A stretch of 64,000 nt of DNA from an uncultured archaeon. GTDB lineage: Archaea > Thermoproteota > Nitrososphaeria > Nitrososphaerales > Gagatemarchaeaceae. Below are positions 19,213-40,905 of the stretch, piece by piece (within the stretch, counting starts at the first letter, position 1; each line of letters opens with the position of its first letter). The notes beneath the pieces were generated by a model. The model did no database searches, was not told where the DNA came from, and was given only the letters and a program-made list of their open reading frames with translations. The translations under genes were made by a program, and so were the position numbers. The stretch spans positions 512,001 to 576,000 of the forward strand of contig CAWFOU010000007.1 of the NCBI GenBank assembly GCA_963817525.1, given 5' to 3'.

Positions 19213-20445
19213 CTAAGACGGAGTGTGTTTTCCGCAGTAGTTCTTCTTCAGAAGGAGACCCTTCGTCACGATATGGTCAACACAGAAGCTCTTTCCACAG
19301 GTAACACAGACAGCGCTGTGGTCTTCGCACGCAAGGCCTCCACATTCCACGCACAATTGAGCGCCACCCTCGCTCTTATGTTGGCCGTCCACATTGCAGT
19401 AGATGAAGTCGTCGGAGACCATGTGGTTGGTCGCAACTTGTAATTTGCGCCCATAGGTTCTGTCCTTGTACCTGAAGGTCGCCGTCACCAAAGGTAGGTT
19501 TGCCTGCTTGACTGAGACTATCCGCACATGCGAGATGGACGGCCTCAATGTCATCGATCTGAATGTGCCGTTCTTCAGCGTGCGCGTAAACTCTTGACAG
19601 AGGTTCCTTGCGATTTCTATCCTTGCTATCTTCTCTGCTTCATACTGGCTGACTTTCACTGGAATGGCCTCGAGTTTGTTGAATTGCGTTCCCTCGGCGA
19701 TTGTCGACCTTGGAGTCTCAACAGCTTCGATTTCTCGGCAGTCGGCAAAATAACCTCTCATCGGCAAATTCGGTCGGACGCCTGATTCTACTTCCACGTC
19801 GACCACCTGTCCTTTCTGGCCTTCGATCACAAGCACGCCTTTGCTGGAGAAGTTCACCCTTTGGTAGAGGAAACTGCCTTCAGTGAAACAGTCATACTCC
19901 ACGAAGAAGCAAGGCATGTATTCCAAATTTAGTCCTGAAAGCTCAATCTGACTCGAAACCCCATTCCTGATTGTCTGTTTGAGGCCTGGTAAGATGGGGA
20001 GGGCATAGACAGTTTTCTCTCCGACCGGCCCTTTTGCGAGGTCCCTGCCAAGCACCTTCCTAAATTCCGCCTTGAAGGCCCCATCGAGGTCGTTAAGATT
20101 CCAAGGGTATAATGAAATGAGTTTGATTCCATTCTTGCGGTATTGCTCTGTCTTCCATTCCTTATCCTGACGGTACTTGTTCCTGTCCTGCCAATCGCCC
20201 ACGTCGATTAGACCCCAATACTCGACGTGAACTCCGTAGTCGGGGAGATGGAAGTCTGGCCTGCTGATTTCAGTTCTGAATGCTGATTGGGTAGTCTTCG
20301 CTCGGTCTTCGTAGACGTATCTTATGTTATTTTCATTGAAATAGTCAGCTATCTGCTTCTCCGCTCGACTCTTCACAATCTCGCCTCGCACTGTTTTGCT
20401 TTGCTCTCCGTACTGCCTGCCAGGATATGAGCGAGGGGTACTCAA
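19213..20445 (-). CDS. Endonuclease-like N-terminal domain plus C-terminal zinc fingers
   Basis: VKSRAEKQIAD...PDFHLPDYGVHVEYWG; CVEC/CEDH/CVTC/CVDH; AT-richer. Confidence 0.7.
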   Translation of the reverse strand: MSTPRSYPGRQYGEQSKTVRGEIVKSRAEKQIADYFNENNIRYVYEDRAKTTQSAFRTEISRPDFHLPDYGVHVEYWGLIDVGDWQDRNKYRQDKEWKTEQYRKNGIKLISLYPWNLNDLDGAFKAEFRKVLGRDLAKGPVGEKTVYALPILPGLKQTIRNGVSSQIELSGLNLEYMPCFFVEYDCFTEGSFLYQRVNFSSKGVLVIEGQKGQVVDVEVESGVRPNLPMRGYFADCREIEAVETPRSTIAEGTQFNKLEAIPVKVSQYEAEKIARIEIARNLCQEFTRTLKNGTFRSMTLRPSISHVRIVSVKQANLPLVTATFRYKDRTYGRKLQVATNHMVSDDFIYCNVDGQHKSEGGAQLCVECGGLACEDHSAVCVTCGKSFCVDHIVTKGLLLKKNYCGKHTPS

Positions 20446-20545
20446 TGAACGAAATCTGCAATTCTCGCATATTTATCCGATATTGACTTGGAATCCGGTC
20501 CGATTTCTGGACTTTCCAGGGAGCAAATTATTCCGTTGGCCTAAA

Positions 20546-21540
20546 TCAGGCCATAAACCCGAACTCGTTTGCAACTCCGTCCACCCACTTCTTGTCGACG
20601 TCTGAGACGACCACATGTCTGCCCATCCTCATCGCTTCCTTCGCCCATTTCGCCACGCCGCAGAAAAAGTCGGCTACGACGTCGCCCGCCCCTGCTGTAG
20701 GCCTTGATAATCTGGAGGAATTCGACTGGATCCTTCACGGCCTCGTGCTTCACGAACCCCGGCTTGGCAGGATTCCTGACCCTCTTCGCATCGATCACGT
20801 TCGTCGCGCCCAGGTCCCATCGGACCCCGTTCCGCTCCCCGGCGTGGAAGACCAGCCACTTCGCCCCCAGATCCCGGCCCGCGTCGTAGCCCATCCCTAA
20901 CACGTCGAGAGCGACGAGTATCTCGCCTTAGTAGACGAATCCGAGAGACTCCGCCAAGGCGATCATAGACTGGATGCTCGGCCTGGTAGTCTTGTTCTCG
21001 AGCGGGACCCTGATGATGCAGGCCGCGCCGCCCCTCGGCCAGTCGCCGCTCCTCCTCCGCTCGAGGTTGAGGGTGTTCCATTGCTTGTTCTTCTTGAGGA
21101 TTCTGAATGCTTCTCTGAAGAAGTCGGCGTCCAGCTCGGGCTGGTGGTATGTCCTTCCCCCCCAGGAGCCTGTGCGGCCTCGTGGTGCCGGTGCCTGCCC
21201 ACTCCCGGCCGAACTTGCCTGGAACGTCAGAGAGGAGAAGGTCGAGCGAGTCGTCGTCCAGCTTCTTCATGATGTCCCAAGCGTTGCCCTCGACGAGGAG
21301 TATCTGGGCCTCACCTGAACGCGCGAAGTATACCCCCTCCTCGACCCGGACTATCGTGCCCTCCTTCACGGCCTCGTGGAGTCTAGCCCTTACGGAGTGT
21401 TCCGGGACCTCAGGCTTCCAGCTGTGAACGAAATCGTAGATTGAGCGAAGCGGTTCGGGCTGCTCTGAGCAGGCGTTGATAGCGAGCTGCTTCGTTGTCA
21501 GAGCCTGCCCAAGCCTGTCAGATGCTCGTGGCGGATTCAT
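20546..21540 (-). pseudogene. Beta-class (N4-C/N6-A) DNA methyltransferase-like gene with N-terminal wHTH; three lesions
   Basis: Reconstructed order DSLDLLLSDVP...FFREAFRILK...HEAVK...DVVADFFCG; frameshift at the G7 run (21157-21163), in-frame TAA (about 20929), second frameshift near 20690. Confidence 0.75.
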
Positions 21541-21594
21541 ATTATGTCGGATCGGTATGGATCACTGACTGAGCTGATATAAGCGCCCATCTGC

Positions 21595-22368
21595 TTACAA
21601 GGACTGGGAGTCCACATAACGATACTCTCCTGACTCTAAGAACTCGATGAAACCCAAGTCGCGCAGGAATTGGAGCTGTTGCCTGATTTTTGGTCTCACG
21701 TTGTGGTTGTCAGGGTGCTTTGCTGCAAGCTCGCTCTCGAAGTCGTAGATATTCGCGAGGGTGAAGTTTGTGAAGCACCTTTCAACGCATCTCAGGACGT
21801 CTGCCAGCCATCCTCTCGTCTCTGGCCTCGACTTGAGAAGGGAATCCGTCTGCTTCCACTGCGCGAGTACCTGTGATTTCTCCCGGACCTGTCCCCCGCG
21901 GACCACCGCAATCTGTCCCTGAGCGGGAATCTCTCTTAGCGTGATCGTGTAGCCTTGCCAGCCCGCGCGCCTGGCGGTGGAGGAGAGCGGTATCCGGGGT
22001 GCGATGCAACTGGTTGTGATGCAGGCCCTGTGCACGAGGGAGAGGTCCTGCACAGCCCACTTGGCGCGGTCGTAGTGAAGCAGAATCAGCGAGGGGAACG
22101 CGTCTTTCAAGATGCTCTCTCGCGTCGTCTCGTATTCCCCGCCGAGTATCGATGTCGAGAAGATGCGGCTCGCAGACTTGAGCTGGAACTTCTCCCTGCA
22201 TTCGGCCGAGTAAAAATCGTAGATCTTGGTGTTGGGAGGGTAGGTAATCAGGTCGGTGCCGCAGGCGGCGCAGTAGAAGTTGTCGGCGGCCCAGCGCTCG
22301 GTGGATACCCGCGCCATCTGAGAAGCACTCTTGAGCCCAGCGGGGGGTGTTGGAAGTGCGAGGTCCAT
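21595..22368 (-). CDS. DpnI-family methyl-directed restriction endonuclease
   Basis: KSASQMARVSTERW..NFYC..CG, RRAGWQG, HPDNHNVRPKIRQQLQFLRDLG winged helix. Confidence 0.88.
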   Translation of the reverse strand: MDLALPTPPAGLKSASQMARVSTERWAADNFYCAACGTDLITYPPNTKIYDFYSAECREKFQLKSASRIFSTSILGGEYETTRESILKDAFPSLILLHYDRAKWAVQDLSLVHRACITTSCIAPRIPLSSTARRAGWQGYTITLREIPAQGQIAVVRGGQVREKSQVLAQWKQTDSLLKSRPETRGWLADVLRCVERCFTNFTLANIYDFESELAAKHPDNHNVRPKIRQQLQFLRDLGFIEFLESGEYRYVDSQSL

Positions 22369-22373
22369 TGCAA

Positions 22374-22910
22374 TCAGTCTAGTGAAGGGGAAGTGATAGC
22401 GCTCAACAAATCACCGATGTTGTACCTTTTTTCTTTGAGTTCTAATCCAGCAATCTTCTTCAGACTCTTGATTGTTATCTTCACAGGACCGCTGAATCGG
22501 GCCTCTCGGTGAGGAAGCACGTAAAGCGCGAAATTCCTACCGCCTTTCCTGAGCAACTCTTCGAAATCAAACCACATCAGGTAATCGGCGTTGATATCCT
22601 TCTCGCCGAAATACTCGAATCCCTTTGTAGTGCCTTTGACTTCGATTCGTACTTCGGTCTGACCGTGCGACCCTATAATGTCTGCTTCGTTGCCTCCGAA
22701 GCGGAAGTCATACCCCTTCACTTCCGTGATGAGACCGCCTCGAAGGAGATGAATCGCTAGAGACTCGGTAAGTTTCGGCGGAAGCTTTGGATACTGGATG
22801 TCAGCCGCAAGTGGGTTGCTCTTCTTCAGATTAGTAATGTAGTTGAAAACGTCATTTAGTAGCAATACAAATTGGTTAATCTCGCGGGGAGAAAGGAGCT
22901 GTCTCGCCAA
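22374..22910 (-). CDS. Putative PD-(D/E)XK nuclease
   Basis: TESL...EADII...RIEVKGT; in operon with the DpnI-like gene. Confidence 0.55.
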   Translation of the reverse strand: MARQLLSPREINQFVLLLNDVFNYITNLKKSNPLAADIQYPKLPPKLTESLAIHLLRGGLITEVKGYDFRFGGNEADIIGSHGQTEVRIEVKGTTKGFEYFGEKDINADYLMWFDFEELLRKGGRNFALYVLPHREARFSGPVKITIKSLKKIAGLELKEKRYNIGDLLSAITSPSLD

Positions 22911-22913
22911 GGG

Positions 22914-23186
22914 TTAGACCTTGGCCCCCGAAATTTCTTTGACTTTGGAAGAGACCAGTCGACCTTGCTTCGAGGCAACGAATAATTTTCCTGATCTTTG
23001 CTTTGGAGTTAGGGACTCGACGAGTTTCCTGGCGAGAAGTTCGCGTAATGCTCTACTGATATTTGGTATGCTGGTATGGAGGTCCGTCGCGAGAAGGGTA
23101 GGAGTACTAGGGGCGTCTAACTTGGCGAGGACCGCTTTCCTAGTCTTGCTGCGCAGGACGTAGCTTACGTCCTCCCACGACATCAC
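22914..23186 (-). CDS. Winged-HTH transcriptional regulator heading the nuclease operon
   Basis: YVLRSKTRKAVL...TPTLLA...NISRALREL. Confidence 0.8.
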   Translation of the reverse strand: MMSWEDVSYVLRSKTRKAVLAKLDAPSTPTLLATDLHTSIPNISRALRELLARKLVESLTPKQRSGKLFVASKQGRLVSSKVKEISGAKV

Positions 23187-23197
23187 GCGAGCGACAG

Positions 23198-23249
23198 TTA
23201 ACAGATCATATTGATCTAGTTATCAGATGATTAACAAAGAATTAACAGA
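23198..23249. promoter_or_regulatory. Phased TTAACAGA-type repeats plus a double-GATC palindrome in a divergent promoter
   Basis: Repeats at 23198, 23220, 23231, 23242; AGATCA-TAT-TGATCT at 23203-23217. Confidence 0.55.
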
Positions 23250-23285
23250 ATATCCTCTAAATCTTGGAATTTTTTCCCATTTCGG

Positions 23286-23981
23286 TTGATGGTCAAGGCA
23301 GGAGATGTAATCTCGTATCTTCAAATGTGCGCTGAAGAGAATACGAGCTTTCGGAGAGGTATGAATTTTGGTCGGAAAGGAAGGCCAAGTGTGATTCTAA
23401 TGAGTACTAGACCAGGTGCTCCATACAAGGACCGAGTGGAGGAGAACGGAAGAGTTCTGATCTACGAGGGACATGACAATCCCGTGCCCGGCAACGGAAG
23501 AAAGCCAAAGGAGGTGGACCAAGAGTCGAGAACGCCTGAAGGAGGTCTTACCCAAAACGGTCTATTCTATGAAGCTGCTCAGAGTTACAAAGATGGAAGT
23601 TCAGCTTCTGAGATAGTCAAAGTGTACGAGAAAATTCGAACCGGAATATGGGTATACAACGGTCTATTCAGGTTGCTTGACGCTTCCACAGTGGTCATTG
23701 AAGGAAGACAGGTGTTCAAGTTTCGTTTGGAATTGGTAGGGAATGTAGAAACAATTGATTCAGGAAGAAAGGAACTGGAAGATACCAGAATTATTCCGTC
23801 TCCCGTAAAGTTGGAAGTTTGGAAGAGGGACGGCGGAAAGTGCGTCAAGTGTGGCTCCAAGAATAACCTTCATTTTGATCACATAATTCCATATTCATTA
23901 GGCGGCACTTCGCTTTATGCCAAGAACATTCAGCTGCTTTGTATCAGACACAACTTGGAGAAGCACGACAAGATAGAATAG
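23286..23981 (+). CDS. SRA-like/HNH putative modification-dependent endonuclease
   Basis: SVILMS..GAPYKD...LIYEGHD N-domain; CVKC..LHFDHIIP..GG...NIQLLC..HN. Confidence 0.8.
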   Translation: MMVKAGDVISYLQMCAEENTSFRRGMNFGRKGRPSVILMSTRPGAPYKDRVEENGRVLIYEGHDNPVPGNGRKPKEVDQESRTPEGGLTQNGLFYEAAQSYKDGSSASEIVKVYEKIRTGIWVYNGLFRLLDASTVVIEGRQVFKFRLELVGNVETIDSGRKELEDTRIIPSPVKLEVWKRDGGKCVKCGSKNNLHFDHIIPYSLGGTSLYAKNIQLLCIRHNLEKHDKIE

Positions 23982-23999: not shown

Positions 24000-24055
24000 G
24001 GGTTTCATCTTGCTTCCGCCGGGGCATTCCATTAACACGTTGAGCGATAGGTAGT
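24000..24055 (-). repeat. rRNA-trailer/23S 3'-end copy R16
   Basis: 24015-24055 differs from native 62165-62205 at 3 of 41 positions. Confidence 0.9.
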
Positions 24056-24060
24056 AGAGT

Positions 24061-24174
24061 AAGACGGTGATAGTCCAAAAGGAAGTCGTTAAGGTTGCCT
24101 GCAAGTATTGTGGAGTTCTCAACGAAATTGCCACAGCGAGGACCTGTATGAGCTACGGTGCGGCGCTGAAGTAG
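24061..24174 (+). pseudogene. Headless C-terminal zinc-ribbon gene fragment
   Basis: KTVIVQKEVVKVACKYCGVLNE...TCMSYGAALK*; begins right after R16. Confidence 0.5.
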
Positions 24175-24254: not shown

Positions 24255-24647
24255 ATGGTAGTTCGCCAAGGCGTTAGAAAGCTGCTGGTTGAAGTAGCAC
24301 GCAGAAGGGAAACAATTACCTATGGTCAAGTGGGAGCGCTGACAGGACTTCCACATCAGGGCAATGTCTTAGGCAACATTCTAGGTGAGATAAGTGAAGA
24401 CGAGGTCGCCCATGACAGGCCACCGTTGTCTTCGATCGTGGTCGTCGGAGGCACGATTGGATACGCAAGCTCCCCAATGGGACTACCCGCAGAGCGCTTC
24501 CTCCGTTGCAAATTCGTTCCGACTGACTTGAATGACAAAGAGCAAATGTTGAGTTATATGCGAGAGATGCAGGAGAAGACTTGGGCCTATTGGGCCGGTT
24601 TGCCGCAGGACGAACAAACACGCCGCGTTCTAATCAAGCTCGGTTGA
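24255..24647 (+). CDS. Hypothetical winged-helix protein
   Basis: ARRRETITYGQV...LGEISEDE...PPLSSIVV. Confidence 0.65.
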   Translation: MVVRQGVRKLLVEVARRRETITYGQVGALTGLPHQGNVLGNILGEISEDEVAHDRPPLSSIVVVGGTIGYASSPMGLPAERFLRCKFVPTDLNDKEQMLSYMREMQEKTWAYWAGLPQDEQTRRVLIKLG

Positions 24648-24663
24648 CCAGGAGTTAGCGGCA

Positions 24664-24740
24664 GGGCTGAACCGGTCGCCCTAAGGCTTCCAGCGTACAC
24701 CCAACTCCTTCAACGCGATCTTCTATCGCCGCCCTCCTCG
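24664..24740 (-). repeat. Ectopic fragment (about 77 bp) of the 23S rRNA 3' end
   Basis: Aligns to native 62210-62287, including CCTTCAACGCGATCTTCTATCGCCGC exactly. Confidence 0.92.
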
Positions 24741-24817
24741 GCCCCCATCTCCCGGTAATGGGAAGGATGGAAAAGGCGCTCGAAGTCAAGATGCGGCTCC
24801 TTGTGAGGCTAAAGAGC

Positions 24818-26110
24818 TCATCCGTGGGACGCCCCTGGCCTGACGTACCGCAGGGACCTCATGTCCTTCGAGAGTATGAAGAGGAGTCCCGAGACCAGCA
24901 GGCCAGCGGCCGCCACCGAGTACTCGAACCGCACGCCCGAGGCCTGGATGAGGAACGCGCCCACCACCTGCCCGACTGGTATCACGCCCAGGCTCCCGAG
25001 TTGGTCGACCCCGAAGTACCGCCCCTGCATCTCTCCCGGCACGGCGAGCTGGACGAAGCTCAGCCAGGTCGCGTTGCCGTAGCCCAGGATGAACCCCGTC
25101 AGCAGCATGGAGGCCGCGGCCACGGCTAGGTCAGGGGAGAGGGCGAGAAGGAGGACCGACGGCGCGAGCCCCAGCATGCAGAGGCACCACACCCACCCGG
25201 CGCGGGCGACCGCGCGCGTCCGGCCGACTATGATGGCCCCGGGCGCGAAGCCGAGGGTGAAGAGGGCGAGGAGGAGGCCGTAGACCTCGGCGCCCCCTTG
25301 GAAGACGTCCGCGGCGTAGACCACGACGAAGGTCGAGACCATAGTGATGAAGAGGTTCGAGAGCCCGCCCGAGAGCGTGAGGTAGAGCAGCCCCCTCCAC
25401 CTCAGGAGGTAACTGACCCCCTCCCTGGTGTCGGCGAGGAAGCTTCTGCCGACCGCGGCGCTGGCCTGGGGTTTTGAGCTCCCGCGGACGGCGATCGAGG
25501 TGATCAGTAGGGCCGAGACCGCGAAGGTAGCTGTGTTTAGGCCCAGGGCTACGACCACCCCCGCAATGGCCACAAGGGCTCCCCCGACCCCATTCGCCAC
25601 GGCCTGGAAGACGGAGTTCGCGGTAAGGATGAGCCCGTTCGCATCCGCGACCTCCTCTGGCCTGATGAGGGTCGGCAGGAGAGACCTCTGGGCGGGATAG
25701 AACAAAGCGGTGAAGGTCCCGAGGACGAAGGAGACCGCGAGGACGAGAGGGAGGCTGAACCCCGCAAGGTAGAGCTCGAGCGCCAGGACCGCTATGCTGG
25801 CCGCCCGGAAGGCGTCGGAGTATATCATCATCCGGCGTCTGTGGCGCTGGTCGCCCCTGTCGACGAGCGTCCCCGCGAAGAGGCTGAAGGCTATGACCGC
25901 CACCATGTTCGACAGCGCCACGTAGGCGACGTCCGCCGCGGAGCCGGTCCTACTGAAGACCAGCCAGGTCAGGGCGACGGTCCCCAGGGACTGCCCGCCG
26001 ATGGAAGTGGCGTCCGCGGAGAAGAGCCTGACGAAGCTCCGATTCCGGAAGAGCCCCTGTTGGCTCGCGTCAGCGCGGGGAGTGTCCTTTTCCTCCGTCG
26101 GCTCAGCCAT
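24818..26110 (-). CDS. MFS transporter (DHA3/macrolide-efflux-like)
   Basis: About 12 TM segments; LFRNRSF..LF, AGTLVDR, PGEMQGR. Confidence 0.88.
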   Translation of the reverse strand: MAEPTEEKDTPRADASQQGLFRNRSFVRLFSADATSIGGQSLGTVALTWLVFSRTGSAADVAYVALSNMVAVIAFSLFAGTLVDRGDQRHRRRMMIYSDAFRAASIAVLALELYLAGFSLPLVLAVSFVLGTFTALFYPAQRSLLPTLIRPEEVADANGLILTANSVFQAVANGVGGALVAIAGVVVALGLNTATFAVSALLITSIAVRGSSKPQASAAVGRSFLADTREGVSYLLRWRGLLYLTLSGGLSNLFITMVSTFVVVYAADVFQGGAEVYGLLLALFTLGFAPGAIIVGRTRAVARAGWVWCLCMLGLAPSVLLLALSPDLAVAAASMLLTGFILGYGNATWLSFVQLAVPGEMQGRYFGVDQLGSLGVIPVGQVVGAFLIQASGVRFEYSVAAAGLLVSGLLFILSKDMRSLRYVRPGASHG

Positions 26111-26172
26111 GGTTCCCTGACCTTGCGCGCTAGCTCGCATATTAAGCCGGTCTGTAGGAAATACCTCTCGCA

Positions 26173-26877
26173 ATGACGGACTCTTCGAACCTGCCAGTCG
26201 GTCCAACCACGGACCCGAGCCCCGCGAAGCGCCCTGAGAAGGTCGTCCTCCATGGCCGGCTAATCGACTTGGAGCCGATAGACCCGCAGCCCCACGGAGA
26301 TTCCCTCTTCCAACTCACGTGTGGTAAGGACAAGGAGTACCTGTGGACGTATCTTTTGAAAGGCCCGTTCACCGACCGCAAGGAGTTTGATGCATATCTG
26401 CGGCAGCTGGCCAGGTCCGAGGATCCCATCTGCTTCGCAATCGTGGAAAAGCGTTCGGGAAAGGCGGTCGGCTGGGCGAGCTACATGCGGATCGAGCCGG
26501 CGCACAGGGTTATCGAGGTAGGCAACGTCATGTTCTCCCTCGCGGTGAGGCGCACGAGCGGGGCGACGGAGGCCATCTACCTCATGGCGCGCAACGCCTT
26601 CGAGGTGCTGGGGTACAGGAGGTTCGAGTGGAAATGTAACGCGCTCAACGCCGCCTCAAGGAGGGCCGCCCTGCGGTTCGGCTTTTCCTTCGAGGGGATT
26701 TTCCGGCAGCACATGATCGTCAAAGGTCGCAGCAGGGACACCGCATGGTTTGCGATGATTGACGCTGAGTGGCCGAAGCGCAAGGAGGCGTTCGAGACTT
26801 GGCTTCAGCCGTCTAACTTTGACGAAGAGGGTCGCCAAACGACATCTCTGTCGGCTCTGAACGGAGTCGGCCGATAG
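26173..26877 (+). CDS. GNAT acetyltransferase (RimJ/RimL, YdaF-like)
   Basis: IEVG, LGYRRFEWKCNALNAASRRAALRFGF, KGRSRDTAWF. Confidence 0.9.
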   Translation: MTDSSNLPVGPTTDPSPAKRPEKVVLHGRLIDLEPIDPQPHGDSLFQLTCGKDKEYLWTYLLKGPFTDRKEFDAYLRQLARSEDPICFAIVEKRSGKAVGWASYMRIEPAHRVIEVGNVMFSLAVRRTSGATEAIYLMARNAFEVLGYRRFEWKCNALNAASRRAALRFGFSFEGIFRQHMIVKGRSRDTAWFAMIDAEWPKRKEAFETWLQPSNFDEEGRQTTSLSALNGVGR

Positions 26878-27082
26878 CAGCGAAGAACAAAAATAGCTTG
26901 TTTCGACACATCGCCAGCGAGCGGCGACAAGAAAAATTGTGCAAGAGCTGCGCCACTGCCTTTGGTCCGTGCAAATGCAATTGCCAGATGAACAACACCT
27001 ACAAAGACAAAGGAGGCGCTACCAAATGTCTCCACTGCAGGCACAAACTCAAGATATGACCAGTCTTTGCGCGAACTGATTT

Positions 27083-27132
27083 GCTGCGCTTAATGGTCCA
27101 TCGCACCTCCTCCGGGGCAATTCTCACTCACA
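27083..27132 (-). repeat. rRNA-trailer copy R15 (degenerate)
   Basis: GGTCCATCGCACCTCCTCCGGGGCAATT vs native GGTTCATTGCGCCTCCGCCGGGGCATTT. Confidence 0.7.
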
Positions 27133-27203
27133 ACTTTCTTCACAACAAAAGCAATGAATCTTGACGGCGTACCTTACGACGCCCGCTCCCCGTCTGAAAG
27201 AAC

Positions 27204-28418
27204 TTGGACACCAGGCGGTGGATGCTCAGCCTCGTCCCGCAGGGGGTCGCGGTCGGCCTTTCGAACCTGCTGATCGTCCTCTTCCTGGCGACGAGCCTCA
27301 AGGGCAACGTGCTCGAGGTCGGCCTCCTCGCCGGCGTGACGTCCCTGGTCCTCATGCCCTCGATGATGTTCTGGGGATGGGCGACCGACAGGGTCGGAAG
27401 GTTCAGGCCCTTCCTCATCCTCTCTTTCGTCGCCACCGGCATCGTCCTCCTCCTCATCCCGACGGTGCACAGCATCGCCGAGCTCTTCATCCTCGCCATC
27501 GTGAAATCCGCGGCGTATGCGGGGAGCCTGCCGTCGCGTCAGATACTGATGGCCGAGTCGGAGAGCCACACGACCTGGCGGAGCGGGTATGCCCGCCTCC
27601 AATTCGTGGAGAGCACGGGCGAGACCATCGGGCTTGGCATAGGGTTCGTGTCGAGCGCGGCCCTGGGGTTTGAGACGCAGTTCGTCCTGTGCGCAGCGCT
27701 CTTCTTCGCCTCCGCGTTGGCCACGGCTGTCTGGGTCCGCGACCCGGGCCTTATCATCGAGAGAAGGCTGGTAGGCATCGAACGCTTCGCCAGCACGCTC
27801 GTCAGCGCCTCGGTTCTGGTGGCGAACGCCGACACCTACGCCAGGTACACCACTCCCGGCAGCATCAGGAGGATCTTCAGACCGACTCTGGGGTTCTTCA
27901 TGGTCGGGGTGTTCTGCTTCTCGCTGGGCGCTACCGCCCTGTCCTCGCCCCTCCCCGTCTACTTCCTCAGATACTACTCCGCCTCGAGCGTCTTTCTTCT
28001 CTTCTTCGCCAACGATCTTGGGAACGCCTTGGGGTACCTCATGGTAGGAGGGATCGCCGAGAGGGCGAGGCGGAGCCTGCTTCTGGCCGCGGGGCTGAGG
28101 ATGCTCATGGTACCCGCCCTCCTCTTGGCGGGCGGTCAGGTCGGATTCACGGCAGACTTCGGCGTGCTCGCCATAATGGGAGGCGTCTGGGCGCTCTACG
28201 ACGTCGCAAGCACGTGCATGTTCTTGGAGCTAGCCAGGTCAGGGCGGGTCGGGCTCTACGGCGCTATTGCAGGCCTCGGGACGGCGACCGGGAGTCTCTT
28301 GGGAGGAGCCATCTCGATGAGTTACGGATTCGGGGTCACATTTGCGGTCTGCAGCCTGGTGTACGCGGTCGCTATGGCCATGTTTCTCTTGCAGTTCAAA
28401 GGGACAAGACGCGTCTGA
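27204..28418 (+). CDS. MFS transporter
   Basis: WGWATDRVGR motif A; about 12 TM segments. Confidence 0.85.
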   Translation: MDTRRWMLSLVPQGVAVGLSNLLIVLFLATSLKGNVLEVGLLAGVTSLVLMPSMMFWGWATDRVGRFRPFLILSFVATGIVLLLIPTVHSIAELFILAIVKSAAYAGSLPSRQILMAESESHTTWRSGYARLQFVESTGETIGLGIGFVSSAALGFETQFVLCAALFFASALATAVWVRDPGLIIERRLVGIERFASTLVSASVLVANADTYARYTTPGSIRRIFRPTLGFFMVGVFCFSLGATALSSPLPVYFLRYYSASSVFLLFFANDLGNALGYLMVGGIAERARRSLLLAAGLRMLMVPALLLAGGQVGFTADFGVLAIMGGVWALYDVASTCMFLELARSGRVGLYGAIAGLGTATGSLLGGAISMSYGFGVTFAVCSLVYAVAMAMFLLQFKGTRRV

Positions 28419-28460
28419 CATCTGGGTCATGCGCTCAAGAGAAAGGCCCACCCGTGGTTC

Positions 28461-28546
28461 AAATGAAAGGCTCGTCGCCATGCGTAAGGGTTCGTTGCGC
28501 CCGCGTGGCATTTCATCCGCACGTCTAGCCATGGGTGGCGGACGGG
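28461..28546 (-). repeat. rRNA-trailer/23S-end copy R14 (long, degenerate)
   Basis: Collinear with native 62128-62212: AAATG..GGC..TCGCC..GGGTTCGTTGCGCC..GGCATTTCAT..CACGT..GGACGGG. Confidence 0.85.
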
Positions 28547-29309
28547 ACTTGCATCAATCGCTCGAGGGGTCGGTGCTCCGGGTCTCCTCGCTCGAGCACT
28601 GATTTCTTCCAGTGGAGCACAGCAGCCTCCCCCAGGACGGGTCGTCGGCCGTCCCACAACAGCCTGCCGCCTACCAATGCGGCGTCCTGGTCTGCGAGCA
28701 CGGCGGCTTTCGGGACCCTCTCGAGTTGATCGGCATTGCCTCCGCCAAGGACTACGTAGTCGACCCCGGAGAATGCCTTGAGCCTCTTCATCGCTTCGTG
28801 TACGTGCCGCTCCCAAGCCGCTCGCCCCAGCTGCCGCAGGCTTTTCTTAGCAAGGTAGTCGCCATATCCGCTCCCCCCGAGGTATTCGAGTTGATCCAGA
28901 GTGAGCAACGCCATGATGCCATCGATGATCAGCACTGCGCCGACGCCGGTGCCTAGGCCGATGTAGAGCATCCTGCCGCCTTTGTAGCTCCCGAGCGCCG
29001 GAAGGGCTGCGTCGTTCACTATGTTGACCGGCAGGGCGAAAGCCCGTGGAAAGTCAAAGCGAATCCAGCCCCGGGCAAGGTTGGGAGGCTCCCCTATCAC
29101 ACGGCCGAAGACTACAGGCCCCGGGTAGCCGAGGGAGATCACGTCGTATTCCCAGTCGGCCGTGGCCCTTTTCACCTGGGATACCGTCGCGCTCGCGGTG
29201 AGGCCTGGACCGCTGGGGAATCTCCTCCACTCCCGCTCGCACTGACCAGCATCTTCACGTTGGTGCCCCCCACGTCGACGACGAGAACCCTGACTTGCGA
29301 GCGCGCCAT
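28525..29309 (-). pseudogene. ROK-family (polyphosphate glucokinase-like) kinase, frameshifted
   Basis: VDVGGTNVK in one frame; RFPSG...GYPGPV...VNDAA...GLGTG in another; shift near 29240 (could be a sequencing error). Confidence 0.75.
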
Positions 29310-29423
29310 GGGGTCGGTAAAGGACCGTCCTGGATGCATTGGAGCCCTCAAGCCCTTCCGCTGGTACTTGTGATGAAGGCAGATATTGATGAGCGTACTT
29401 AGTTCTGGCCTGCCGAACCCGCC

Positions 29424-30089
29424 ATGAACGACCCGAAGACCAAGATCTCTGCCCTCGCCGTTGATTTCGACGGTACCATCCGCTCCCCAGGAGGCTCGGT
29501 CTCTAACGACCTGCTCGCCCAGCTGGCCTCCCTGCGCAGGAGTGGCATCAAGGTCATCCTGGCGACTGGGCGCGCCCTTTTCGACCTGAAGGCGCTGGTC
29601 GATGTGGGCGTCTTCGACTCGGTCGTCGTCGAAAATGGGGCCATCGTGATTGTAGGTGACGAGCGAAGGAGCCTGGCGCCGACGGAGTGGAATGCCCAGA
29701 GGGAGAGCTTGCTTGGGCTCTTCGGCTCCACCGGGCATGAGGAGGTCATCGTTTCCTTGAGGAGGGAGGCAGAAGCGCAGGTGAGGGAGCTCCTGAAAGG
29801 CACCGTCAGGATAGAGCTCAACAAGGAAGCCATGATGCTTGTGCCGTGGAACGTCTCAAAGGCCTCGGGCCTTTTGTCCGCGCTCGACTGGCTGAAGGTG
29901 GATGCCAAGAGCGTGATGGTCGTGGGCGACGCGGAGAATGACGTCTCGATGCTGCGGCTGGGAGCCGTAAAGGTGGCGGTCAAGAACGCGGTGCCTGCCC
30001 TCAAGAGCGAGGCTGACTATGTGACCACTGAGGAGGACGGCAAGGGGGTCTCCGAGGCGATTGCGAAGTTCCTCGGTCCCATGACCTAG
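29424..30089 (+). CDS. HAD-superfamily hydrolase (Cof/phosphoglycolate phosphatase-like)
   Basis: DFDGT, ATGR, ENG, SKASG, GDAEND. Confidence 0.9.
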   Translation: MNDPKTKISALAVDFDGTIRSPGGSVSNDLLAQLASLRRSGIKVILATGRALFDLKALVDVGVFDSVVVENGAIVIVGDERRSLAPTEWNAQRESLLGLFGSTGHEEVIVSLRREAEAQVRELLKGTVRIELNKEAMMLVPWNVSKASGLLSALDWLKVDAKSVMVVGDAENDVSMLRLGAVKVAVKNAVPALKSEADYVTTEEDGKGVSEAIAKFLGPMT

Positions 30090-30109
30090 GCGCAACTCCC
30101 GAGTGGAAC

Positions 30110-30278
30110 TCTATGGGACGAGAAAGACTCGGAGGCGATAGAGGAGGAAGTCAAGCAGAAGCGCTCTTGAGGTACGAAGTAAGGCTCTCGAAAAAAGCTG
30201 ATCGAGAACTTGCCTCGCTCGAGCAGTCAACTAGGTCGAGGATGGCGATATTAGAGGAACTACTCAGGAGGTTATGAC
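30110..30278 (+). pseudogene. Remnant RelBE pair: antitoxin tail plus truncated RelE N-terminus
   Basis: LWDEKDSEAIEEEVKQKRS* overlapping LRYEVRLSKKADRELASLEQSTRSR. Confidence 0.55.
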
Positions 30279-30482
30279 TTGGGCTTTGCCCTTGGCCATC
30301 GCCTGGACCATCATTGGCACCACCTTGCTGGCGTTGAGGACCTCGAAGAAGAGAGGCCTCCCCTTTGAGTCCACGTGCATGACCACGTCTCCGACCTCCC
30401 ATGCATGAGATAGCTTCCCCTTGTCCTTCAGAAGCACCAGCAGGACGTCGGCGTCTGAATCGTACTTCAGCTTATAGGTCAT
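30264..30482 (-). CDS. DUF2283-type antitoxin-like protein; upstream partner reduced to a tail
   Basis: YDSDADVLLV...VDSKGR...EVLNAS; overlapping upstream HIVVITFYP remnant. Confidence 0.75.
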   Translation of the reverse strand: MTYKLKYDSDADVLLVLLKDKGKLSHAWEVGDVVMHVDSKGRPLFFEVLNASKVVPMMVQAMAKGKAQVITS

Positions 30483-30567
30483 TGTCTTTTCTCTTCACGG
30501 GATAGAAGGTTATCACAACTATATGCCTTTGCGCTCTTCGTGAACCACCCGGAGCGCGAACTTTCCA

Positions 30568-30630
30568 GCGCTATTTCATGTTCTTGATGGTGGCTAGGTC
30601 CTCGTTGAACGACCGCTCGAGCATCTGCTT
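30568..30630 (-). pseudogene. 3' fragment of a paralog of gene 51921..52331
   Basis: 63 bp matching 51918-51980 with 5 mismatches. Confidence 0.8.
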
Positions 30631-30642
30631 CCGAAAAGACCT

Positions 30643-31011
30643 TCATGGAGGGGCCTTTGGGATGAACTTGAGAGATATGGAGTTGGCACAGTGCCTGGTG
30701 TTCTTCGTTGTGAGCCCCTCTCCCAGGAAGACGTGGCCAAGATGTGCGCCGCAATTCGCGCACTCGATCTCCGTCCTCTGTCCGTCCGCGTCTGGGATCC
30801 TCTTGACCGAGCCCGGTATCTCGTCGTCGAAGGCCGGCCAACCGCACCTCGCGTCGAACTTGTCTTCAGAGCGGTAGAGGGGCGCCTCGCACCTCCTGCA
30901 GACGTACGTCCCGGGCTTGAAGTTGCGCTCGTACTCGCCGGAGAAGGGCCTCTCGGTTCCTTTGCGGACTATGACCCTCTCCTCTTCCGGAGACAGCTCG
31001 TTCATCTTCAA
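30643..31011 (-). CDS. msrB: Methionine-R-sulfoxide reductase
   Basis: GTERPF, CGWPAF, HLGHVF, RHCANS. Confidence 0.95.
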
Positions 31012-31089
31012 TTGTCCTCGCCTCGGTGTTTTTCACGGCGGTGTCTATTAAACGCGGCCGGCCGAGCAGAGAAGGCTTCGAGATAGTCC

Positions 31090-31917
31090 TTAGGGTTCGT
31101 CCGTGGGGTCCCAGACCGTGTGCAGGTCCTCGCCGAGGGCGTCGAGCTTGGACATGTCTGCCGGGGAGATCTCAAAGTCGAAGACCTCGCTGTTCTCCTT
31201 AATCCTCTCGGGGTGGGTCGACTTTGGGATGACGACGAGCCCGTGCTGCAGGCCCCACCGGATCATGACCTGGGCCGGGCTCTTGGAGCACTTTTTGGCG
31301 ACGGCGAGGACCACGGGGTGGTCGAGCTTGTGCCCGCGGGTCAGGGGGCTGTAGGCCTCGAGCTGTATCCCCTTGCCTTCGCAGAAGCGTAGCAGCTCCC
31401 TCTGGTAGAGGAAAGGGTTGAACTCGACCTGGTCGACGGCGGGGGTGACGTCCGAGCCGCCCAGCAGCTCCTGGATGTGCCTGACGGTGTAGTTGCTCAC
31501 GCCTATGGCCCGGCACGAGCCCCGCCGCTGGAGCTCCACGAGCGCCTTCCAGGTCTCGGCCCTGAGCTCAGGGACCGGCCAGTGGATCAGGTAGAGGTCG
31601 ATGTAGCCCAACCCGAGCCGGCGCAGGCTCTTGTCGCAGGCGGACAGGGCGGAATCGTAGCCGTGGTCGCTGTTCCAGAGCTTCGTGGTGATGAAGACCT
31701 GCTCGCGTGGCACCCCGCTGTCCCTGACCCCCCTCCCGACGTCCTCCTCGTTCCCGTAGAGGCTCGCCGTGTCGAGGTGCCGGTAGCCCACCTTCAGGGC
31801 GTACTTCACGGCCTCCTGGGTGGCCCTCCCGAGCGGCGTCTGGAACACTCCCAGCCCGAGCACGGGTATCTCCGTGCCCGAGTTGAGCTTCCTAGTGGAC
31901 GTGATTGTTAGAGCCAC
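31090..31917 (-). CDS. Aldo/keto reductase
   Basis: GYRHLDTA..YGNE, TTKLW, LYLIHWP, IGVSN, IPKS. Confidence 0.93.
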   Translation of the reverse strand: MALTITSTRKLNSGTEIPVLGLGVFQTPLGRATQEAVKYALKVGYRHLDTASLYGNEEDVGRGVRDSGVPREQVFITTKLWNSDHGYDSALSACDKSLRRLGLGYIDLYLIHWPVPELRAETWKALVELQRRGSCRAIGVSNYTVRHIQELLGGSDVTPAVDQVEFNPFLYQRELLRFCEGKGIQLEAYSPLTRGHKLDHPVVLAVAKKCSKSPAQVMIRWGLQHGLVVIPKSTHPERIKENSEVFDFEISPADMSKLDALGEDLHTVWDPTDEP

Positions 31918-32129
31918 GGCATGTTCGCCAAGCCGGCGGAGTTCTCCCCGACCTTAAACCAATCGAGCCAATTAGCTGCCGATTGATTTGGTAGGTCGCC
32001 TGGCCGATGGGAGTGACATCCTCAACATCGCATGTGCAATAGGGAGACATTCGGTCTACTCGGCCAAGCAGGCCGTCGAGACTGGATTAGGTTGGAGACT
32101 TGGCAATCCGACAGGTCCTCAGGGGGGCC

Positions 32130-34460
32130 CTAGGGAGCGAATGAGGGCGGGGCGTCCTGGGAACTGCTCCCCCACTTCGAGGGGGTGCTCCCGAGCGTGA
32201 AGTTCAGCATCGCGCCGTCTTGCAGCGCGGTCCACGGGACCCAGAGACTCGAGGTCGGGGTCCCGTCCAGCTCTAGGCTCTGCACATACGGCTGCGAGGC
32301 CCCGGTCCCGTCGACCTGCAAGGTGTGCCCTCCGGAGAGGTTCACGGTCATCGAGGGGAAGAGCGGGCTCCCGACCACGAACCCTCCTACCCCCGCAATC
32401 TCGGGGTAGAGACCCATCACCGCGAAGATGTACCACGAGGACATCTCTCCGCCGTCGTCGTTCCCCGGCATCCCTTCCGGCGAGTCGTACCAGAACTGGG
32501 TCTCGATCTGCCGGACCACGCTCTGCGTCTCTGCGGGGGCCTGCGCAAAGTCGAACTCCCACGGTACCTCCACGGTCGGCTCGTTCCCTATCCAGATTCC
32601 AAGGCTGTCAGGGCCCGCGTTGAGCTGCGAGACGGAGAGTTCGAGGCGACCCAGAGCAGTGGAGTTGCCCCCCATCGCGGAGAAGAGCCCTCGCAGGTCG
32701 TAGGTCACCAGCCAGGTGTACTGTGCCGCGTCCCCCTCCTCGAAGCCGTTCTGGCTGGTAGGGCTGAAACCGGCGGCCCATGTCCCGTTGGCGTCGCGGG
32801 GCTGGACGTAGCCGCTGGTCGCGTTGAAGACGTTCACCCAGTTTGCGGAGCGCTGAAGGTACTCGTCGTAGACTGCCGTGTTCCCGAGCTCCTTCGCGAA
32901 CTGCGCGATGGCAAAGTCGTCGGTGGCGTACTCCAGGGTGACCGAGGCCGTCGGGAGGCTCGGATAGATGTCGGCCGGGACGTATCCCAGCTTGACGTAG
33001 TACGAGTAGCCCTCGCGCTCGTTGGCCTGCCCGTTCAGCATCGCCTCGAAGGCCGCCCCCGTGTCGAAGTCCGTCGCCCCAAAGGCGTACGCCTCGGCGA
33101 CGTCCGCGTCCGCGGAGTCGCCGGTTTCCCCGTGCGAGTCCACGTTGGCCTGCTCCCACCGCGGAAGGGAGCCGTCGCCCTGCTGGGCGTCGTTCACGAG
33201 CGACTGGATGATGTCGCTAACGGCGGATGGGTCGAGGATCGAGAGCAGCTGGATCTGCGTGCGGTAGTCATCCCAGCCGGCGATGTTCTCGTACTGGAGG
33301 TGCCCCGGCGGGACGGTGTGGACCTTCCCGTCGAAGCCGATGTACTGACCGTTGTCGTCGTTGAAGACGTTGGGTTGGAAGAAGATGTGGTAGAGAGCCG
33401 TGTAGAAGGTCGCGGTCTCGTTGTAGGTGCCTCCAGAGACGAGGATGGAGTTCAACCGCGCGTTCCAGGCATCGGCAGCGCTCTGGGCGACGGCCTCCAG
33501 GTTGAAGCCGGCGTACTCGTCGGAGAGGTTCACCCGCGCGTTCGCCACGCTGACGAACGATAGGGCGACCTGGAGGTTCACCACGTGTTCGGACATCGTG
33601 TCGAAGACGAGGTAAGCGCCAGCGTGCTGGCCGCTGCTCGAGGTCGAGCCCTCACTGATCGAGCTCCCGTTCCAAGTCCCGTAGCTGTTGAAGGGCCTGT
33701 CGAACTTTGCGACGAAGTATACCTGATACGGCTGGTATCCGCATCCCACGACGCTGACCGCGGTCCCGGTGACCTCGTCCTGGGACGGGAGGACATTCAC
33801 CTCCGAGTATGAGTTACCGTTGATGCTCCCCCCTGCGTTGATGATCAGCGTCGAGAGGGTCGACGGAGGATAGATGAAGCGGCCCACGCCCGTGTGGGGC
33901 GTTGCGCTCAACTCGGCAGTTACGTTGGGCCCATCGAGGTGAACCTCGTAGTAGCCTGGACGCGCCGTCTCATTGGCGTGCGAGAATGGCGAATAGTAAT
34001 AGGAGGCGTTCAGCGCGGGAGAGACAGAAAACTGCCCGACGTAGGGCATGAACGGAAAGTCCTGGTAGACCTCGCACCCCCTCCCGCTGAAATGCGTCAG
34101 GCTCAGGCCTTTGATCGTCGAGTCCCCGTAGAAGTAACCCCCTGGAGGGTTGGTGGGGGTGTCGGGGCTCCACTGGACCATCCCCATAGGGTAGGCAGCC
34201 CCAGGGAAGACGTCTCCTCCGCAGGCACCCCCGCAGGGAGGGCTCGGGCTGTTGCCCGTCCCGATGAACGGGTTGACATACTGTGTAAGGTTCTCGAGGG
34301 GGGCGCCGCTCGACGTGGTGGAGCCTCCGGGCGCAGGATAGACGACCGACATCGCGGGCCCGAGGGAGCTGCTCACTGACTGCACGAAGACCACCCCGAT
34401 TAGGAGGACCGCAACGAGCGCCGCGAAGAGAACAGCCGTGCGCTGACCGATTCTGCGCAT
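32130..34460 (-). CDS. Secreted GH92 alpha-mannosidase-like glycoside hydrolase
   Basis: YVNPFIGT, PGAAYPMGMVQWSPDT, GFEEG..QY, GNEP, PGNDDGGEMSSWY; signal peptide. Confidence 0.92.
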   Translation of the reverse strand: MRRIGQRTAVLFAALVAVLLIGVVFVQSVSSSLGPAMSVVYPAPGGSTTSSGAPLENLTQYVNPFIGTGNSPSPPCGGACGGDVFPGAAYPMGMVQWSPDTPTNPPGGYFYGDSTIKGLSLTHFSGRGCEVYQDFPFMPYVGQFSVSPALNASYYYSPFSHANETARPGYYEVHLDGPNVTAELSATPHTGVGRFIYPPSTLSTLIINAGGSINGNSYSEVNVLPSQDEVTGTAVSVVGCGYQPYQVYFVAKFDRPFNSYGTWNGSSISEGSTSSSGQHAGAYLVFDTMSEHVVNLQVALSFVSVANARVNLSDEYAGFNLEAVAQSAADAWNARLNSILVSGGTYNETATFYTALYHIFFQPNVFNDDNGQYIGFDGKVHTVPPGHLQYENIAGWDDYRTQIQLLSILDPSAVSDIIQSLVNDAQQGDGSLPRWEQANVDSHGETGDSADADVAEAYAFGATDFDTGAAFEAMLNGQANEREGYSYYVKLGYVPADIYPSLPTASVTLEYATDDFAIAQFAKELGNTAVYDEYLQRSANWVNVFNATSGYVQPRDANGTWAAGFSPTSQNGFEEGDAAQYTWLVTYDLRGLFSAMGGNSTALGRLELSVSQLNAGPDSLGIWIGNEPTVEVPWEFDFAQAPAETQSVVRQIETQFWYDSPEGMPGNDDGGEMSSWYIFAVMGLYPEIAGVGGFVVGSPLFPSMTVNLSGGHTLQVDGTGASQPYVQSLELDGTPTSSLWVPWTALQDGAMLNFTLGSTPSKWGSSSQDAPPSFAP

Positions 34461-34663
34461 GTGACCTCTGCATGGAAGGGGGAGGTCGCGATATTTAGCT
34501 CTAGAAAAAAGTGGGAAGATCGCGCCCTCGTTTTGGCCACCTCGAGCGGCTCCCGCAGCGAGCTGGCTACGCGCCCTCGAGGACATGCAGGTTTATCCGA
34601 GCACTGTGGAATACGTCCTCAGATAGTACTGCCCATCCTTGGGGCGAGCGCTTGAGCCGGGGA

Positions 34664-35440
34664 TCAGGGGTTGAGGTCGCATATCACGGCGTTGCAATCC
34701 ACCGGCGTGACCTGTATGCCGATCATGCCGCTCACCTGCGAGTAGACCTGTCCCTCCCCTATGTAGCAGCCGGCGCGGTATCCATGGAGAGCGAAATAAG
34801 GTCCGGTCTCGTTCGATTGCACGAACGAATAACCCACGGCGAACGGGAAGTCGACCCCGCACACCACTGGACCGAGGTATCCAACGTCCAGGAAGTAGAA
34901 GCCCTTCGCGTCTGCGTCGGCTATCACCACGAACGCGACCGTCTTCTGCATCGGATGGGTCGCCCCACCGATGGTGATGCTGGTCTGGTTGGGCACAATA
35001 ACCACGTGGGCCGAGACGTTGGTGTACGACTCGCCGTTGCGGACGAAGTAGGTCTGGACGGTCAACCCTCCTGTGCAGTCCGAGCAGAGGCCGATGGTCG
35101 TGCTGTGCGTGGAGTTGGTCGTGAAGAAGGTCACGCAGATCTGTCCCACGCTCTTCGCAGGCATTGTCAGAATCCCGAGCGAACCGTTTGTGGACTGAGA
35201 ATTCTTCGTAGAGTCCAGACCGGAGTAGGGAGTCACGTCAGAGCAGCCCTGGATTTCCGGCGCGGTCACAGTCGAGTTCCCCGTTATCGAGCTTTCAGCA
35301 CCTGCCCGGAGTGAGGCTGTGCTCACAACTGGGTTTGCCCGAGGAGGAGGATAAAGCGCGATCCCGACGGCCACCAGAGCTATGAGCCCGATAGCCGCAC
35401 CAACGAGCCACATTCTCCGCCTTGGACGGGCGTCGGACAT
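34664..35440 (-). CDS. Secreted Cys-rich hypothetical protein
   Basis: RRR followed by hydrophobic signal segment. Confidence 0.6.
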   Translation of the reverse strand: MSDARPRRRMWLVGAAIGLIALVAVGIALYPPPRANPVVSTASLRAGAESSITGNSTVTAPEIQGCSDVTPYSGLDSTKNSQSTNGSLGILTMPAKSVGQICVTFFTTNSTHSTTIGLCSDCTGGLTVQTYFVRNGESYTNVSAHVVIVPNQTSITIGGATHPMQKTVAFVVIADADAKGFYFLDVGYLGPVVCGVDFPFAVGYSFVQSNETGPYFALHGYRAGCYIGEGQVYSQVSGMIGIQVTPVDCNAVICDLNP

Positions 35441-35772
35441 CCAGAGTCCCTGGAGAATCTATCTCGAGACGCGAAATAATAAGTCTCCCATGACGCGGCC
35501 GACTCGCGGCCTCGTCTGTCTCCTTCCGTAGACTCTAACGATTTCGGGATGGCCTTCGCGCCCGTGCCGACCAAGGCCTTGGCCTCCTGAGGCCCAACAC
35601 GCTCATCACCGACTCCTTGAAGTCGAGTAGCTCCTGCAGCTGCTTGTCACTCGCCGAGAGCCTCTCCTTCATCTCCAGTTTTTCGAGCTTCTCGTGGTCC
35701 AGGTCCGCCCTAAGCATCTCGATGCGCGCGAGAGTTCATTAGGGGTGCCTGTGTTCGAAGGAAGATGAGACA

Positions 35773-40900: not shown

Positions 40901-40905
40901 GCGCG

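Follow-up and report, generated by a model that had tools for sequence, protein, structure and literature searches.

A probable relic of a 23S rRNA gene end in a Gagatemarchaeaceae genome and the gene cassettes bounded by repeats of that gene end

How does a piece of 77 nucleotides from the end of a 23S rRNA gene come to lie tens of kilobases away from that gene, and what do the base changes mean by which it differs from the gene in a hairpin that nevertheless remains paired? The question is raised by positions 24664–24740 of a 64,000-nucleotide stretch of DNA (here called the window; contig CAWFOU010000007.1, positions 512,001–576,000, of assembly GCA_963817525.1) from an uncultured archaeon of the Gagatemarchaeaceae, an abundant, uncultured family of acid-soil archaea. 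The genome of the window is referred to as G000 and those of its relatives by other G numbers. The fragment is probably a decaying, non-functional relic of a 23S gene end (the last ~80–110 nt of the gene body), and it lies at the edge of an array of gene cassettes.

The fragment matches 62210–62287 on the same strand with 70 identities over 78 positions and one gap (blastn within the window, E = 3e-24). All differences taken together are seven substitutions and one indel, and the agreement is, as the alignment indicates, far above chance level. By blastn and Rfam, 24664..24740 (minus strand) is a copy of the 3′ region of the 23S outside its native place, with helices from around model positions 2885–2960. 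On the Rfam model LSU_rRNA_archaea (RF02540) it covers only positions 2885–2973 of 2987, and is thus not a full-length LSU, with 24.0 bits (E = 6.1e-05), which is below the gathering cut-off of 50 and formally outside the family, whereas the native stretch (the last 123 nt of the 23S) scores 61.2 bits with one non-standard pair. Nothing beyond the fragment matched when 24300–25100 was scanned for LSU. The widest plausible extent of the relic is 24643..24775 (minus strand), drawn from nhmmer, the Rfam alignment, and a hairpin seen by eye: nhmmer placed 24643–24711 on positions 131–190 of the model of repeat R (see below); the Rfam alignment extends to 24650, with 24650–24663 being weakly tail-like; and 24741–24775 could, by eye, fold as a hairpin at the place of the native variable helix. 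A comparison of 24560–24663 with 29 sampled 23S tails and trailers revealed no similarity above that of shuffles (z ≤ 2.7), by which the idea that the left flank is a foreign tail or trailer was rejected. Because this flank is unlike any sampled 23S tail, sure homology stops at 24664, which corresponds to 62210.

The native counterpart is the genome's only 23S gene. Its 3′ part is found at 62178..64000 (minus strand, 1024.6 bits) and continues past the window end; the whole gene (G000:C7:574179–577845) is present as a single copy in the 2.82-Mb assembly and has a length of 3667 nt, as compared to the 2987 positions of the model. When the 23S genes of congeners are compared with the native one, insertions are apparent at ~62522, 62695–62767, 63405, and 63775, which resemble variable introns or expansion segments.

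In RNA sense the native hairpin reads CUAG-AA-GCC-UUCG-GGC-GA-CUAG and that of the fragment CUGG-AA-GCC-UUAG-GGC-GA-CCGG, exactly as given in a preliminary description of the locus, and the three changes named there, a double change from A-U to G-C, one from U-A to U.G, and one in the loop, are all present in the alignment. The region was aligned with 21 further loci, of which 20 were taken as native 23S ends; the 21st, L028 of G022, is an ectopic piece and stands outside these 20 natural rows. The stem CUGG/CCAG occurs in working 23S genes of G009, G012, and G016, which belong to the same genus, and of G037 and G040, which belong to two other families. The native CUAG/CUAG is rarer among working genes: it is found in G000 and G018, plus G020, where it is in a contig-end copy taken as native. 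Four genomes (G015, G007, G010, and G021) have CACG/CGUG, and G004 has CAAG/CUUG. To judge from these rows, the stem is a covariation hot spot that varies freely within the genus, and what had been called a double compensatory change is, by the same comparison, natural polymorphism in an rRNA helix.

Compared with CUGG/CCAG, the stem of the fragment has one further A-to-G change, giving the U.G pair. Two of its other differences from the native gene, GAGAGC to GAGGGC and GGGGU to GGAGU, are likewise congener states. Found only in the fragment are the change of the loop from UUCG to UUAG, one deleted G, one G to U, and the A to G of the U.G pair, and of these the deleted G and the G to U fall in the strand that pairs with the tail. 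Congeners with the same 3-bp stem have UUCG, CUCG, UUUC, or GCAA loops; UUAG is absent from all 20 natural 23S rows. The exact CUGG/CCGG variant is also absent from all of them, and the assumption that it is a natural functional variant found no backing there. On the archaeal LSU model (RF02540), against which a check of this helix had been suggested, all pairs of the inner hairpin are kept in the fragment, two of them as wobbles. The fragment scores 24 bits as compared to 61, and of 27 model pairs it has lost 4 which the native gene keeps, all of them involving the doubtful left end 24650–24663. Since CUGG/CCAG is the state of working genes elsewhere, the stem of the fragment does not come from decay of the present native allele. 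On the evidence of the aligned alleles, the fragment descends from a once-working allele that differed from the present native one, and has later drifted. The preliminary description, which had derived it from a working 23S of a relative or an ancestor, was therefore right as far as the allele is concerned, CUGG/CCAG being present in five working genes, but the fragment itself is not intact.

Where did this allele come from? It had been proposed to look for a better match in another lineage, and none turned up among 41 relatives or in a sample of 401 genomes of the class. In the 41 relatives there was no source closer than the genus itself (best 89–91% over 67–91 nt), and in the class sample, which holds no other member of the genus, the best match was 87% over 84 nt. 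The fragment is about equally far (84–91%) from all congeners and from two other families. The source allele was probably either that of an ancestor of this lineage or that of a congener, arriving with a cassette, and the identities fit both equally.

The surroundings of the fragment contain a repeat, here called R. In an initial search of the relatives with the 23S end and its downstream flank, many short matches were obtained which clustered downstream of their 23S genes. R is 45–120 nt long and is composed of the 23S tail (the last 32 nt, 62178–62209), a core (~62134–62180) of ~40–45 conserved nt just downstream of the 23S, and a T-rich trailer. The founding copy, 62092..62209 (minus strand, nhmmer 119.9 bits), has all three of them, its core being the 3′ strand of the 23S processing stem. 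The core pairs with the 5′ flank in the 16S-23S spacer with −65.9 kcal/mol in G000 and −64.9 kcal/mol in G012, and between these two genomes there are G-C to A-U and G.U to G-C changes by which pairing is kept. The two flanks of the 23S thus form a long stem with each other, as is typical of an archaeal pre-rRNA processing site, and in the fold model the R core is the 3′ strand of this stem. By eye, the most conserved 26 nt of R form a 4-bp GCGC/GCGC helix between two longer helices; on the 3′ strand AAU is bulged out, and the 5′ strand has a longer part without pairing. This predicted shape is bulge-helix-bulge-like, the canonical motif having two bulges of 3 nt, one on each strand, around a helix of 4 bp. 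The word GGCGCAA(U/A) downstream of the 23S recurs in several other families of the order, from which it follows that the processing-stem element may be much older than the arrays.

In the window, 11 copies of R were found with the first model and 18 (at E ≤ 1) with the model built from 138 copies; the count is reported as 13–18, and 18 of 18 lie on one strand. Going away from the 23S gene there are, all on the minus strand, copies at 60779..60830 (nhmmer 48.0 bits), 59366..59436 (41.1 bits, with 23S tail), 58993..59047 (53.4 bits, with 23S tail), 56868..56982 (49.8 bits), 53162..53216 (24.3 bits), 52365..52414 (42.4 bits), and 51829..51897 (33.5 bits). Five decayed copies of one orientation (minus strand) follow within 40863..50288, at 50258–50288, 49878–49914, 45090–45114, 44567–44591, and 40863–40926, their nhmmer E-values of 0.0026–0.27 being weak; one R is decayed in the window where relatives keep R beside the same cassette. 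The last three, again on the minus strand, are at 28462..28551 (47.1 bits, with 23S tail), 27074..27132 (16.7 bits), and 24001..24061 (40.1 bits, core plus 23S tail). The whole genome has 30 copies at E ≤ 0.01, four of them on C13, which duplicates part of C1. G000:C13 repeats the R-bearing part of G000:C1:541–545 kb with the same match pattern, which fits the contamination/duplication estimate of 8.75%.

Ten regions, namely the window and nine stretches from eight relatives, together contain 260 copies of R, which are co-oriented within every region. The largest regions have 60, 48, 39, and 37 copies, the median spacing is 871 bp (quartiles 713 and 1428), and where a region includes the native 23S end, as eight of them do, the array always begins there. 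The score of R correlates negatively with the distance from the 23S gene in 8 of 10 arrays, in none with p < 0.05; so weak and non-significant a gradient does not establish an ordered insertion beside the 23S. The exact 25-nt core was found 369 times in 120 metagenome contigs, and of the 86 contigs with at least two copies 84 have them co-oriented. It was also found in 34 stretches of a species-genome collection, with labels including Nitrososphaerota, Thaumarchaeota, and Nitrososphaerales, one of the stretches belonging to Candidatus Gagatemarchaeum stordalenia, and in viral contigs there were 0 exact core matches. Two other genera of the family have R clusters (G334 with 13 matches and G357 with 8); G347 has the native end only, and in G037, from another family, there was no match to the R stretch. 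In G334 (C4:2700–32200) the copies near the 23S gene have one direction and a second group 14–30 kb off has the opposite one, as after an inversion.

What lies between the repeats is a cassette array (24776..62091, not assigned to a strand), recognized by family searches and by the presence of the same units at other positions in the arrays of relatives. Its genes encode MFS transporters, GNAT, HAD, aldo-keto reductase, GH92, PQQ-propeller, PIN, IF-2B family, and NUDIX proteins, a copy of TBP, and a DnaJ-domain protein, and there are many open reading frames without a family. Blocks of 0.3–1 kb from the window recur in the arrays of relatives at other positions and in shuffled order. For example, 31068–31966 (aldo-keto reductase) is found also in G018, G009, and G012, and 41586–42628 (IF-2B family) in G012 and G022. 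A full TATA-binding protein gene is present as a cassette-like unit at 46718–47275, with 90.5% DNA identity to that in the array of G009.

The blocks end at R. When 166 inter-genome blocks of 300–3000 bp inside arrays were compared with 500 random placements, 65% of the 332 block ends were at most 60 nt from an R (random mean 13%, maximum 20%), both ends were near an R in 80 of the blocks (random mean 4, maximum 11), and not one of the 166 spanned an R. The direction of genes was counted in 203 units of 200–1600 bp: the dominant reading frame has the direction of the 23S in 91, the reverse direction in 43, and there is none in 69. Since 43 of 134 dominant frames oppose the 23S and R is never flipped, R does not follow the direction of the genes. 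Where one cassette is present in two genomes, the exchange point can be located by comparing the pair. On one side of such cassettes the trailer is more alike than in the background (identity 0.50–0.71 versus 0.36–0.50), on the other side the tail is (0.80 versus 0.68), and the identity of the core equals background. With the trailer linked to one side, the tail to the other, and the core at background, the exchange point lies within the core. Co-oriented repeats thus bound gene-sized cassettes that differ between genomes, and the arrays are likely an integron-like additive island anchored on the rRNA gene. The earlier suggestion of an import through the rRNA anchor was right in spirit, since the 23S 3′ end does anchor a cassette array genus-wide; a closer donor of the fragment was not found among the 41 relatives and the 401 genomes of the class.

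Do such repeats also carry parts of the 23S gene proper? For 236 copies of R compared with their own native end, the similarity extends as far as the core end in 64 and as far as the tail end in 48, and 16 continue into the 23S body. The stop at the tail end is at position 62209/62210, which is exactly where the fragment begins. Five ectopic pieces in relatives contain 44–130 nt of body contiguous with tail and core. Those of G018 and G022 have a hybrid stem, CUAG/CCAG with an A.C mismatch, as would be expected from an allele exchange within the hairpin or from a frozen intermediate.

The fragment, unlike these five pieces, is not contiguous with tail and core and has an unrelated left flank. 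One more step is therefore required to account for it: something was inserted at the junction, or the fragment has another origin. The tail/body junction is both the point where the nearest R, 24001–24061, stops and the point where the fragment starts, and 602 bp lie between these two copies. In this interval there is an open reading frame for 130 amino acids (24255..24647, plus strand) of no known family, and 24059–24652 has no DNA match in 40 relatives except for one of 66 nt upstream of this frame. The 130-aa frame may have entered as a unit at this junction, and the simplest reading would be that of an ectopic R-plus-body copy split later by this insertion; repeats at the ends of the 602-bp stretch were not found.

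On the other side of this R is a block of low GC content (19213..23981, no strand assigned; ~49–55% as compared to ~60–64%), which by composition and families is of the defence type. It has genes for a DpnI-like protein with an HTH domain, an SRA-HNH nuclease, a small HTH protein, and a 410-aa protein with a nuclease-like N-terminus, and looks like a methylation-dependent restriction island. The fragment and the low-GC block sit at the far end of the detectable 38-kb array, where "far end" is approximate. The closest homologue of a DEAD-box helicase gene at 15584–16813 is beside the array of G012 (87–90% amino acid identity, in two frames), the identity with apparent core orthologues being 62–76%; given this location of the homologue, the flexible region probably extends to the left of the last detectable R.

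By which mechanism could such arrays be formed? At each cassette boundary there would be a co-oriented R, made up of 23S tail, 3′ strand of the processing stem, and trailer, with some copies keeping a longer piece of the 23S body. Recombination within the 40-nt core would lead to gain, loss, and reshuffling of cassettes, the tail staying linked to one of the two neighbouring cassettes and the trailer to the other. Occasionally the exchange would reach into the 23S body and leave ectopic pieces, comparable to the partial tRNA repeats in additive islands. The fragment would thus have been copied from a working CUGG/CCAG allele, either an ancestor's or that of a congener arriving with a cassette, and since then it would have drifted by the A to G that gives the U.G pair, by UUCG to UUAG, by one deletion, and by the breaking of outer pairs. 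The copies of R are possibly kept alike by conversion against the native trailer, which is under selection, or by some other requirement.

A dedicated enzyme was looked for in several groups of genes. Tyrosine recombinases (PF00589) are absent from the window and from the arrays of G007, G009, G015, G018, and G021; G007 and G018 have one such gene each, far from the array. Genes for serine recombinases, Y1 transposases, or HNH proteins are not present inside the arrays, and the HNH-SRA gene beside the fragment was rejected as a general homing nuclease, being absent from the arrays of five relatives. An integrase gene does occur together with an R core in a module of 2.07 kb (G000:C8:21869–23946; L108, L110), which also encodes a DnaJ-domain membrane protein and is 93–96% conserved in G000 (contig 8), G020, G012, and G009, the frame of the tyrosine integrase being split in G000. 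The module abuts an apparent intron-bearing tRNA gene, recognized by eye and not called by ARAGORN. As the integrase (22.5–23.8 kb of G000:C8) adjoins this tRNA-like gene, it probably targets the tRNA and not R. R-bounded cassettes are thus found also in integrase-borne islands, which could ferry cassettes between cells. With no dedicated recombinase turning up in these searches, we take ordinary homologous recombination as the default. The homology of the fragment, the polymorphism of the stem, the arrays, the shuffling, and the core as the place of exchange are directly observed, whereas the route by which the body piece was duplicated, and the enzyme, are inferred.

Other explanations of the fragment have to be considered. 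It could be a recent import, i.e., the 3′ end of a foreign 23S that arrived together with the low-GC neighbours, its differences being the donor's functional sequence. This would agree with the composition of these neighbours, with the unmatched stretch to the left of the fragment in 40 relatives, with the equal distance of 84–91% from all congeners and two other families, with a left flank unlike the tail and trailer of the genus, and with a perfect alternative 6-bp pairing between the 5′ strand of the fragment and 24650–24655 that is seen by eye. We consider it rather improbable, however: neither the 41 relatives nor the 401-genome sample (87% over 84 nt at best) contains a better match, the UUAG loop occurs in 0 of 20 natural rows, 4 of 27 model pairs are broken, and none of the sampled 23S tails is similar to the left flank. 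A second alternative, simple decay of a copy made from today's native 23S end, with the pairing kept by luck, could be thought of because only one helix is concerned and pairing in the fragment is lost elsewhere. It is strongly disfavoured by the two differing stem positions, which both match the commonest natural allele, CUGG/CCAG, of five working genes, and by GAGGGC and GGAGU, which are congener states as well.

The arrays, too, can be seen differently. If R were an attC site on which an integron integrase acts, the array would be a canonical integron, in line with co-oriented repeats around mostly single-gene units that are shuffled between genomes and with a GTTRRRY-like word in the 23S tail (by eye). 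This can hardly be the case since the copies of R share no fold of their own (consensus energies of −2.4 and −1.5 kcal/mol for the two strands, from the 50 of 138 copies left by the gap filter), an inverse core site was not seen by eye, and there is no tyrosine recombinase in or beside the arrays of G000, G007, G009, G015, G018, and G021. Just as little credit can be given to the view that R is a short regulatory or mobile element (terminator, promoter, or MITE) which merely resembles the 23S trailer, and that the arrays are not products of recombination. R does have a T-run and sits between genes, and 91 of the 134 units with a dominant frame share the direction of the 23S; but 43 are opposite without R ever being flipped, synteny between genomes always breaks at R, R lacks both inverted ends and a fold, and dyad symmetry was not seen in it by eye, and R contains the coding tail of the 23S, in 16 of 236 copies also 23S body. 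A more far-reaching alternative is a dedicated, integrase-independent archaeal platform for gene capture that works at the bulge-helix-bulge half of the 23S processing stem; either the 40-nt core would be recombined by an unknown enzyme, or the cassettes would be read through from the rRNA promoter and cut by the splicing endonuclease. We regard this as a rather unlikely possibility. If true, it would explain the near-invariant core in hundreds of copies, and alleles of tail and trailer, possibly even the 3′-terminal sequence of the 23S, would be exchanged between species together with the cassettes.

The account that we consider the probable one as a whole is that of a relic of a 23S gene end in a cassette array which is anchored on the 23S gene. 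The compensatory signal in the fragment would then be a frozen record of variation that really exists between alleles of an rRNA helix. Independent assortment of gene-sized cassettes has a precedent in bacterial integrons, and islands at tRNA genes are known widely. In the Gagatemarchaeaceae, arrays of this kind would explain how genomes of 2–3 Mb, which are among the larger ones in their order, collect accessory genes. The 23S end offers a universal and highly conserved landing site for exchange between species, and the question is raised whether the machinery of rRNA maturation is involved or homologous recombination alone.

How does the array compare with known systems? Integrons have an integrase, an attC site that is an imperfect palindrome folding as a hairpin, and an attI site. 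Both integrons and integrase-less attC clusters form long arrays of co-oriented repeats with shuffled single-gene cassettes, and in chromosomal integrons the repeats are very similar within a lineage. The arrays described here resemble them in that co-oriented copies of R, which are alike within the lineage, bound shuffled single-gene cassettes. They differ in that R lacks the hairpin fold, that an integron integrase is missing both from the window and from the five relatives' arrays, that R is a piece of an rRNA precursor, and that the array abuts an rRNA gene rather than attI.

In additive flexible genomic islands (e.g., fGI-2), as far as they are described in the relevant part of PMC10872708, the last 20 bp of a tRNA gene recur as repeats. 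From this description the two systems have in common a variable island beside a stable RNA gene, direct repeats of the 3′ end of this gene throughout the island, and a cargo that is mostly accessory or without assigned function. Here too the repeats equal the 3′ part of the target gene, of which R contains the last 32 nt, and the array begins directly at the intact target; a recombinase carried by the inserted units, which is a further mark of additive islands, is absent from the main arrays. The tRNA-end islands of that description differ in their repeat, R being a 23S end plus processing-stem strand, 45–120 nt long and archaeal, and in that R bounds nearly every gene, in up to 60 units. Tycheposons, going by the accounts in bioRxiv 10.1101/2020.12.28.424599 and PMC10872708, likewise form islands at the 3′ end of stable RNA genes by repeated integration and have mobile cargo. 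They have a tyrosine recombinase, in these accounts, whereas the main R arrays have none; only a secondary cluster of R lies beside an integrase, the tRNA-linked one.

The island HVR2 of SAR11 lies between the 23S and 5S genes, and in the passages of PMC2217521 devoted to it the rRNA genes were proposed as anchors for homologous recombination. In those passages HVR2 is, like the present array, hypervariable and follows immediately downstream on the only 23S gene; it is presented there as one replaceable block without internal repeats of the rRNA end, whereas here there is an anchor for each unit. For integrated elements of Thaumarchaeota, i.e., from the same phylum, the main text of PMC6563490 names tRNA genes, intergenic regions, and 3′ ends of protein genes as targets and reports tandem re-use of one integration site; "rRNA" is absent from this main text, and its Table S2 of integration targets could bear on this point. 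The genome paper of the family (PMC10640624) has no mention of a cassette, an integron, a hypervariable region, the 23S, a genomic island, or a repeat, and a literature search that covered main texts gave no description of rRNA-anchored cassette arrays. Within the literature searched, the cassette array on the 23S end and its processing stem is a previously undescribed variant of island- and integron-like systems.
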